Shown in pieces: positions 40,112-40,567 of a DNA stretch of 64,000 bases (position 1 is its first letter; each line of letters begins with the position of its first letter). The position numbers and the translations under genes are program-made. Source of the DNA: Escherichia phage MX01; sequence record NC_031934.1. One strand, 5' to 3'. The notes beneath the pieces were generated by a model. The model had not been told where the DNA came from, ran no database searches, and saw only the letters and a program-made list of their open reading frames with translations.

Positions 40112-40567
40112 TTATTTTAGGTCTTCAGCCCAGTCGAGCTTCAAGGGTTCTTTATATTCTCTGTCTAAAACAACAGGAATCTGGACATCTCCACTAAAGG
40201 TAAGTGGTCCTACATTATAAGACAGGGTGATATGAGGGGTGTAATCATCAAAATCGTGCGTAGCACCTAAGGTACGAGCATACTGATGGCGGCATTTAAG
40301 ATACTCTGAATTGAGAACCAAAACCAGGACAGGAGAATCACCGTGTTTCCATACTTCAAGATGTCCTGACGAAGCAACTTCAAAACTTCCGGATGCAACG
40401 GTGTATGGAACGTTGACTCTTGAATAGCAGATTGTAGAATGGAATTTTTCACGAGGAACCGGATTAGGAACCTTTAAAGTGCGCTGAAGGTTTTCCAGCG
40501 CATCTAAAGTTAATTCAGAGAATTTTGCAGCAACGTATAGACCTTGAGCAAAATCTTCGGTTTTCAT
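40112..40567 (-). CDS. acb1: 2H phosphoesterase-family protein, 57B/Acb1-like (anti-CBASS cyclic-nucleotide nuclease)
   Basis: 151 aa with two H-x-T/S-x motifs (HSTI, HITL); position immediately upstream of 57A. Confidence 0.6.

Follow-up and report, generated by a model that had tools for sequence, protein, structure and literature searches.

A Dhakavirus orthologue of T4 gene 57B, predicted to encode the anti-CBASS nuclease Acb1, in Escherichia phage MX01

The window analyzed here is a stretch of 64,000 nucleotides from Escherichia phage MX01 (NC_031934.1), read 5′ to 3′ on one strand. By megablast, the region groups with Tevenvirinae phages of the genus Dhakavirus and near kin, for example WG01, QL01, LQ5, E33 and AnYang, with ~93-97% DNA identity; AnYang is Dhakavirus anyang. 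The ORF map is T4-like, with minus-strand early and middle genes followed by genes 4-2-3-1-57A-57B, and with plus-strand baseplate genes from ~43.5 kb. Including the internal-protein (ip) genes next to 57B, the order 4-2-3-1-57A-57B-ip is that of T4. The features at and around gene 57B, here called acb1, are collected in Table 1.

Table 1. Features at and around acb1 in the window (position 1 is the first letter of the window).
Feature	Position	Strand	Basis or remark
T4-type late-promoter consensus TATAAATA upstream of gene 4	43523..43530	minus	Sequence match
Second TATAAATA match, divergent from the one above	43508..43515	plus	In the gap between gene 4 (minus) and gene 53 (plus)
Gene 1, dNMP kinase gp1	40790..41551	minus	PF21448, E = 4.6e-90; syntenic marker
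Gene 57A, tail-fibre chaperone	40567..40797	minus	PF17594 (GP57), E = 1.4e-28; phrog_1002
TAATG junction, 57A stop and acb1 start	40565..40569	minus	Read from the sequence and the ORF coordinates
acb1 (gene 57B) CDS	40112..40567	minus	ATG start; 151 amino acids, stop included in the coordinates
First catalytic motif, H43-S44-T45-I46	40430..40441	minus	Equals T4 H44/T46; H43 and T45 invariant in the alignment
Second catalytic motif, H112-I113-T114-L115	40223..40234	minus	Equals T4 H113/T115; P111, H112 and T114 invariant
C-terminal lid equivalent, amino acids 144-151 (LDWAEDLK)	40115..40138	minus	Includes W146 (T4 W147)
18-bp perfect stem-loop with early-promoter-like site	40058..40101	minus	Directly after the acb1 stop; z ~ -7
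Second and third composite cassettes	~39725-39760, ~39336-39370	minus	One before each further small gene
Internal-head-protein-like genes	39763-40035, 39388-39696	minus, tandem	phrog_7673, phrog_2667
Strongly hydrophobic ORF, 61 amino acids	39133-39318	minus	Likely small membrane protein
tRNA genes, Arg-TCT and Met-CAT	37836-37992	minus

An initial annotation, made from the letters and a list of ORFs, had described a 151-amino-acid ORF as a 57B/Acb1-like 2H phosphoesterase, and the ORF list contains this ORF with exactly the same ends, on the minus strand. It had also placed the ORF immediately upstream of gp57A. This is correct in window coordinates but not by transcription, because the two genes share the minus strand and the ORF is the downstream one. 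The assignment to the position of T4 57B was borne out by Pfam searches of the neighbors, which are gp57A and gp1, as in T4. The gp3-gp1-57A-57B block recurs in T4, AnYang, Phi1, Abraxas, RB16, nt-1 and Muldoon; around the distant homolog of the Salicola jumbo phage this context is absent.

Between 57A and acb1, the ATG of acb1 (40565-40567) shares one base with the TAA stop codon of 57A (40567-40569). This overlap of stop and start suggests that the two genes are co-transcribed and translationally coupled, with 57A the upstream partner of acb1 in what appears to be one transcription unit. The corresponding overlap in T4 comprises four bases. The TATAAATA match upstream of gene 4 is the sole one on the minus strand from 37571 to the end of the window. 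Across the whole window, matches to this consensus do not exceed chance (8 found, 7.8 expected), and it is by position only that this match is a candidate source of late read-through across 4-2-3-1-57A-acb1. The same match forms a divergent pair with a plus-strand one, both within the 45-base gap between genes 4 and 53. The arrangement is suggestive of T4-type late transcription units, and it is the position of the pair that speaks for it.

The protein encoded by acb1 aligns from residue 8 to 149 with the complete profile (1-144 of 144) of the Pfam family PF23474, “Anti-CBASS protein Acb1,” and scores 197.9 bits (E = 8.4e-59), where the gathering score of the family is 27 bits. It matches PDB entries 7T26/7T27, the Acb1 of Erwinia phage FBB1, with ~65% identity (E = 1.6e-58, query residues 9-148). 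The alignment with a characterized Acb1 that the initial annotation had proposed as a check gave 128 identical residues out of 151 (85%) against T4 gp57B (NP_049750.1), without a gap (E = 6e-100). A search of the protein against NCBIfam matched no family model. The identity to 7T26, which extends over 140 residues, implies that the protein would adopt a 2H phosphoesterase fold; this assignment derives from the sequence identity, and a single-sequence AlphaFold2 model was of too low confidence to be used (mean pLDDT 37.9, pTM 0.28).

Searching the phage collection with tblastn returned a match in 1,469 records, and in 1,459 of them the match spans 80% or more of the protein. Identity is at least 99% in 26 of these records, including AnYang, and 95-99% in another 24; no record of the collection falls between 90 and 95%, and 755 records, Tequatrovirus alleles among them, have 80-90% identity. 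The Dhakavirus alleles form a distinct cluster of ~50 records.

PHROGs gave a different label. The protein matches phrog_755 (E = 2e-66), which is named “RNA ligase,” and many RefSeq phage records carry the same name. The gene product could on this basis be an RNA ligase, or a LigT-type 2′-5′ RNA ligase acting in RNA repair, and there is a faint similarity to PF13563 (2_5_RNA_ligase2, E = 0.062), which fits a common ancestry within the 2H superfamily. To our knowledge, the name is a legacy transfer within that superfamily, and we know of no ligase assay behind it. The PF13563 match, however, is partial and its 13.8 bits lie below the cut-off of 27, far from the score of the Acb1 profile. One phage record names a homolog “putative RNA 2′,3′-cyclic phosphodiesterase” instead, and the T4 orthologue is a hydrolytic cyclic-oligonucleotide nuclease (PMC9117128). 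Based on the Pfam scores and the published biochemistry of the T4 protein, we reject the RNA ligase identity, which we consider extremely improbable.

Structures of FBB1 Acb1 have been solved in the apo form (7T26) and with 3′3′-cGAMP (7T27), and they revealed how the enzyme holds its ligand (PMC9117128). In the 2H fold, the scissile phosphate sits above an HxT/HxT tetrad (H44, T46, H113 and T115); four aromatic residues (Y12, W74, F107 and W147) provide base stacking, the adenine N6 is contacted by E141, and a lid formed by residues 145-152 closes over the ligand (PMC9117128). The residue numbers printed in that study coincide with the T4 sequence. We found that all nine of these named residues (T4 Y12, H44, T46, W74, F107, H113, T115, E141 and W147) are identical in the MX01 protein, where each number is lower by one (Y11, H43, T45, W73, F106, H112, T114, E140 and W146). 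In an alignment of nine sequences (the MX01 protein, T4, FBB1, Serratia phage Muldoon, Phi1, Acinetobacter phage Abraxas, RB16, Vibrio phage nt-1 and Salicola phage SCTP-2), in which identity falls as low as 27%, Y11, H43, T45, P111, H112 and T114 are among the invariant positions. The lid segment differs from that of T4 by one conservative change, from D to E.

The initial annotation had relied on two motifs, HSTI and HITL, as a 2H phosphoesterase signature. Both are present, and a scan of the translation identified them as the only H-x-[TS] motifs in the 151 residues. However, two or more such motifs occurred in 19.7% of 20,000 shuffles of this same protein. Because about one in five shuffles carries two, the motif pair by itself is weak evidence; we reject the motif count as stand-alone evidence, and the identity of the gene is supported by homology. 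The proposed Acb1-like 2H phosphoesterase agrees with the full-length PF23474 match, the homology to FBB1 and T4, the conserved residues and the synteny.

At the DNA level, the coding sequence is 71.7% identical to that of T4. The differences are distributed as 33, 12 and 83 over the first, second and third codon positions, and pS is 0.78 (saturated) with a pN of 0.13, giving a pN/pS of ~0.17. This ratio and the codon-position pattern indicate that acb1 is under strong purifying selection, with its reading frame intact. They also bear on whether the copy is decaying or already inactivated. Acb1 activity can be a liability to a phage, as it triggers guard systems of the Panoptes type, which fire on depletion of cyclic nucleotides, and some Tevenvirinae have a disrupted acb1 (PMC13577387). 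Both type I and type II Panoptes restrict Tevenvirinae that express Acb1, and the phages escape by inactivation of acb1 (PMC13577387). Phage Bas43 carries an acb1 nonsense mutation, and in Bas35 the mutants that escaped type II Panoptes have inactivated the gene (PMC13577387). In MX01, however, the frame is full length with every catalytic and contact residue present, the changes relative to T4 are overwhelmingly synonymous, and a further isolate has the identical protein, with copies of at least 95% identity in ~50 records. Considering the intact frame, the residue conservation and the substitution pattern, we reject a decaying copy, a reading to which we attach almost no weight. The identity of the gene and its orthology are established, as are the conservation of the named residues, the synteny and the purifying selection.

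The stem-loop directly downstream of acb1 coincides in part with a sigma-70-like site, TTTACA-16-TACTAT, which has an extended TG. A generic scan had flagged the same segment as a plus-strand terminator with a T-run, which we reject, given that no plus-strand gene ends there; we read the hairpin as a minus-strand promoter/stem-loop cassette. Three composite cassettes of this kind were detected, with one before every small gene that follows acb1, and from each to the next the steps are ~340 and 384 bases. In their design, GTTTAC is the −35 element, and the loop and 3′ arm of the hairpin carry TGATACTAT as the −10 element. T4 has the same promoter/stem-loop arrangement ahead of ipI. By analogy, the cassettes would fit the PeSL (“promoter-early stem-loop”) elements of T4-like phages, which have been described as recombination and regulatory cassettes (Arbiol, 2010; Comeau, 2014; PMC2839356, PMC4122927). 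With the first stem-loop, the acb1 unit ends and the variable internal-protein cassettes begin. Weak inverted repeats within the acb1 ORF itself (I3-I5, 76-87% complementary) were judged to be due to chance.

Both internal-head-protein-like genes open with the leader MKTYQEFI, comparable to MKTFKEF in T4 IPI; beyond the leader, neither protein is related to the other or to IPI. The program placed the start of the second gene four codons earlier (39708); the leader suggests that the true start is probably the ATG at 39696. The two products are possible injected anti-restriction or anti-defense proteins. In T4, acb1 adjoins the anti-restriction gene ipI (PMC9117128). Because of this neighborhood and the ip-like genes found here, acb1 of MX01, as in T4, borders a variable locus of candidate anti-defense genes. 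The small hydrophobic ORF takes the place of T4 trna.4, with the ip cassettes on one side and a trna.3-like ORF on the other. The tRNA region holds two tRNA genes only; the T4 cluster comprises eight, along with the small RNAs rnaC and rnaD. A search of the whole window against Rfam at gathering thresholds returned nothing but these two tRNAs, and no match near acb1.

T4 gene 57B was identified as Acb1 by activity-guided fractionation (Hobbs et al., 2022, Nature, PMC9117128). Metal-independent cleavage of 3′-5′ cyclic di- and trinucleotides that contain adenosine has been demonstrated for T4 Acb1 and nine homologs, the reaction proceeds in two steps via a cyclic phosphate intermediate, and the H44A/H113A mutant of T4 Acb1 is catalytically inactive (PMC9117128). 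The activity appears ~15 minutes into T4 infection; deletion of acb1 causes a replication defect of >300-fold, but only when CBASS is active, and growth is normal without CBASS (PMC9117128). Given the evidence above, we are highly confident that the MX01 ORF is the Dhakavirus orthologue of T4 gene 57B and encodes the Acb1 anti-CBASS nuclease. For this allele, enzymatic activity, range of substrates and an anti-CBASS phenotype are predicted from orthology. The most likely function would be metal-independent cleavage of 3′-5′-linked, adenosine-containing cyclic di- and trinucleotides, by which CBASS would be blunted.

By extension from T4 and FBB1, a 3′-5′-linked cyclic di- or trinucleotide would be taken up in a U-shaped pocket, where the aromatic residues Y11, W73, F106 and W146 would stack on its bases, E140 would read the adenine N6, and the C-terminal lid would shut over the bound ligand. 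The HxT pair, H43/T45 and H112/T114, would then provide acid-base catalysis independently of metal. The 2′-OH of an adenosine would attack the adjacent phosphodiester to form a 2′,3′-cyclic phosphate intermediate, whose hydrolysis would leave a linear 3′-phosphate product. With 3′3′-cGAMP, cUA, cAAA and similar signals removed, CBASS effectors would stay inactive, and the phage could complete its cycle in CBASS-carrying hosts.

A 2H fold is also typical of cyclic phosphodiesterases, and the Acb1 reaction itself hydrolyzes a 2′,3′-cyclic phosphate intermediate (PMC9117128). The tRNA genes of the phage are ~2 kb away from acb1, whose product might mainly be a general 2′,3′-cyclic phosphodiesterase or an enzyme that heals RNA ends, for example those of cleaved tRNAs, with the cleavage of cyclic oligonucleotides secondary. 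Against this, the T4 deletion mutant is impaired solely under active CBASS, and the pocket, with its lid and adenine-specific contact, fits cyclic di- and trinucleotides (PMC9117128), and the residues concerned are kept in the MX01 protein. Moreover, where acb1 and the tRNA genes are far apart, as in Phi1, RB16 and nt-1, acb1 stays with 57A and gene 1 and not with the tRNA genes. The general phosphodiesterase or RNA-repair role is therefore disfavored by the CBASS-specific phenotype in T4 and the conserved pocket, and we regard it as very improbable as the main role, although such an activity might exist on the side.

If the protein acts as an Acb1 nuclease, its 23 substitutions relative to T4 might still shift the substrate range (for example to cGG or 3′2′-cGAMP) or lessen activity on Panoptes decoys. 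Such an allele would be an adaptation in the arms race between Acb1, CBASS and Panoptes and not a plain orthologue. Nothing argues for this, as the known contact residues are all unchanged, and we consider a shifted specificity unlikely, with a small chance of being correct. As an ordinary Acb1 nuclease, the protein should make this phage, like most T4-like phages, resistant to CBASS signaling via adenosine-containing 3′-5′ cyclic di- and trinucleotides, and the same gene should expose the phage to guard systems such as Panoptes (PMC13577387). Both predictions could be used in predicting the host range of phage-therapy candidates.

The gene is an ordinary one and already known: the family, the mechanism, the structure and the exact protein sequence are all public. 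A literature search for Dhakavirus Acb1 found no report of a test, and Hobbs et al. (2022) make no mention of Dhakavirus. What is added here is the correct name for a protein recorded as “hypothetical” or “RNA ligase.” In annotation derived from RefSeq and PHROG, gp57B/Acb1 is still an “RNA ligase” (e.g., T4p137 in NC_000866, NC_031928 and NC_028847), and many GenBank records name it a “hypothetical protein.” This naming is a systematic misannotation of a characterized anti-CBASS nuclease.

Among the closest known systems is T4 Acb1, the founding anti-CBASS nuclease, with which the MX01 protein shares the HxT/HxT tetrad and the five ligand-contacting residues, a length within one residue, and a genomic place after 57A and before internal-protein genes. 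None of the substitutions that separate the two proteins falls on a residue named as catalytic or ligand-contacting. Downstream of the gene, T4 has a single ipI, whereas MX01 has two unrelated internal-protein-like cassettes. FBB1 Acb1 would share the 2H fold and active site, judging from the identity over residues 9-148, but has a one-residue insertion after residue 76 of the MX01 protein, and has F and Y in place of W73 and F106, which MX01 and T4 have in common. In AnYang, ORF085 (QAU03619.1, annotated as “hypothetical protein”) encodes a protein that is 100% identical, with the same flanking gene order, and a further 49 phage records are at least 95% identical; such records say “hypothetical protein” or “RNA ligase.” With cellular and viral 2H phosphoesterases (LigT / 2′-5′ RNA ligase, PF13563), the MX01 protein shares two H-x-T/S motifs and, presumably, the 2H fold, whereas the substrates and the biological role differ.
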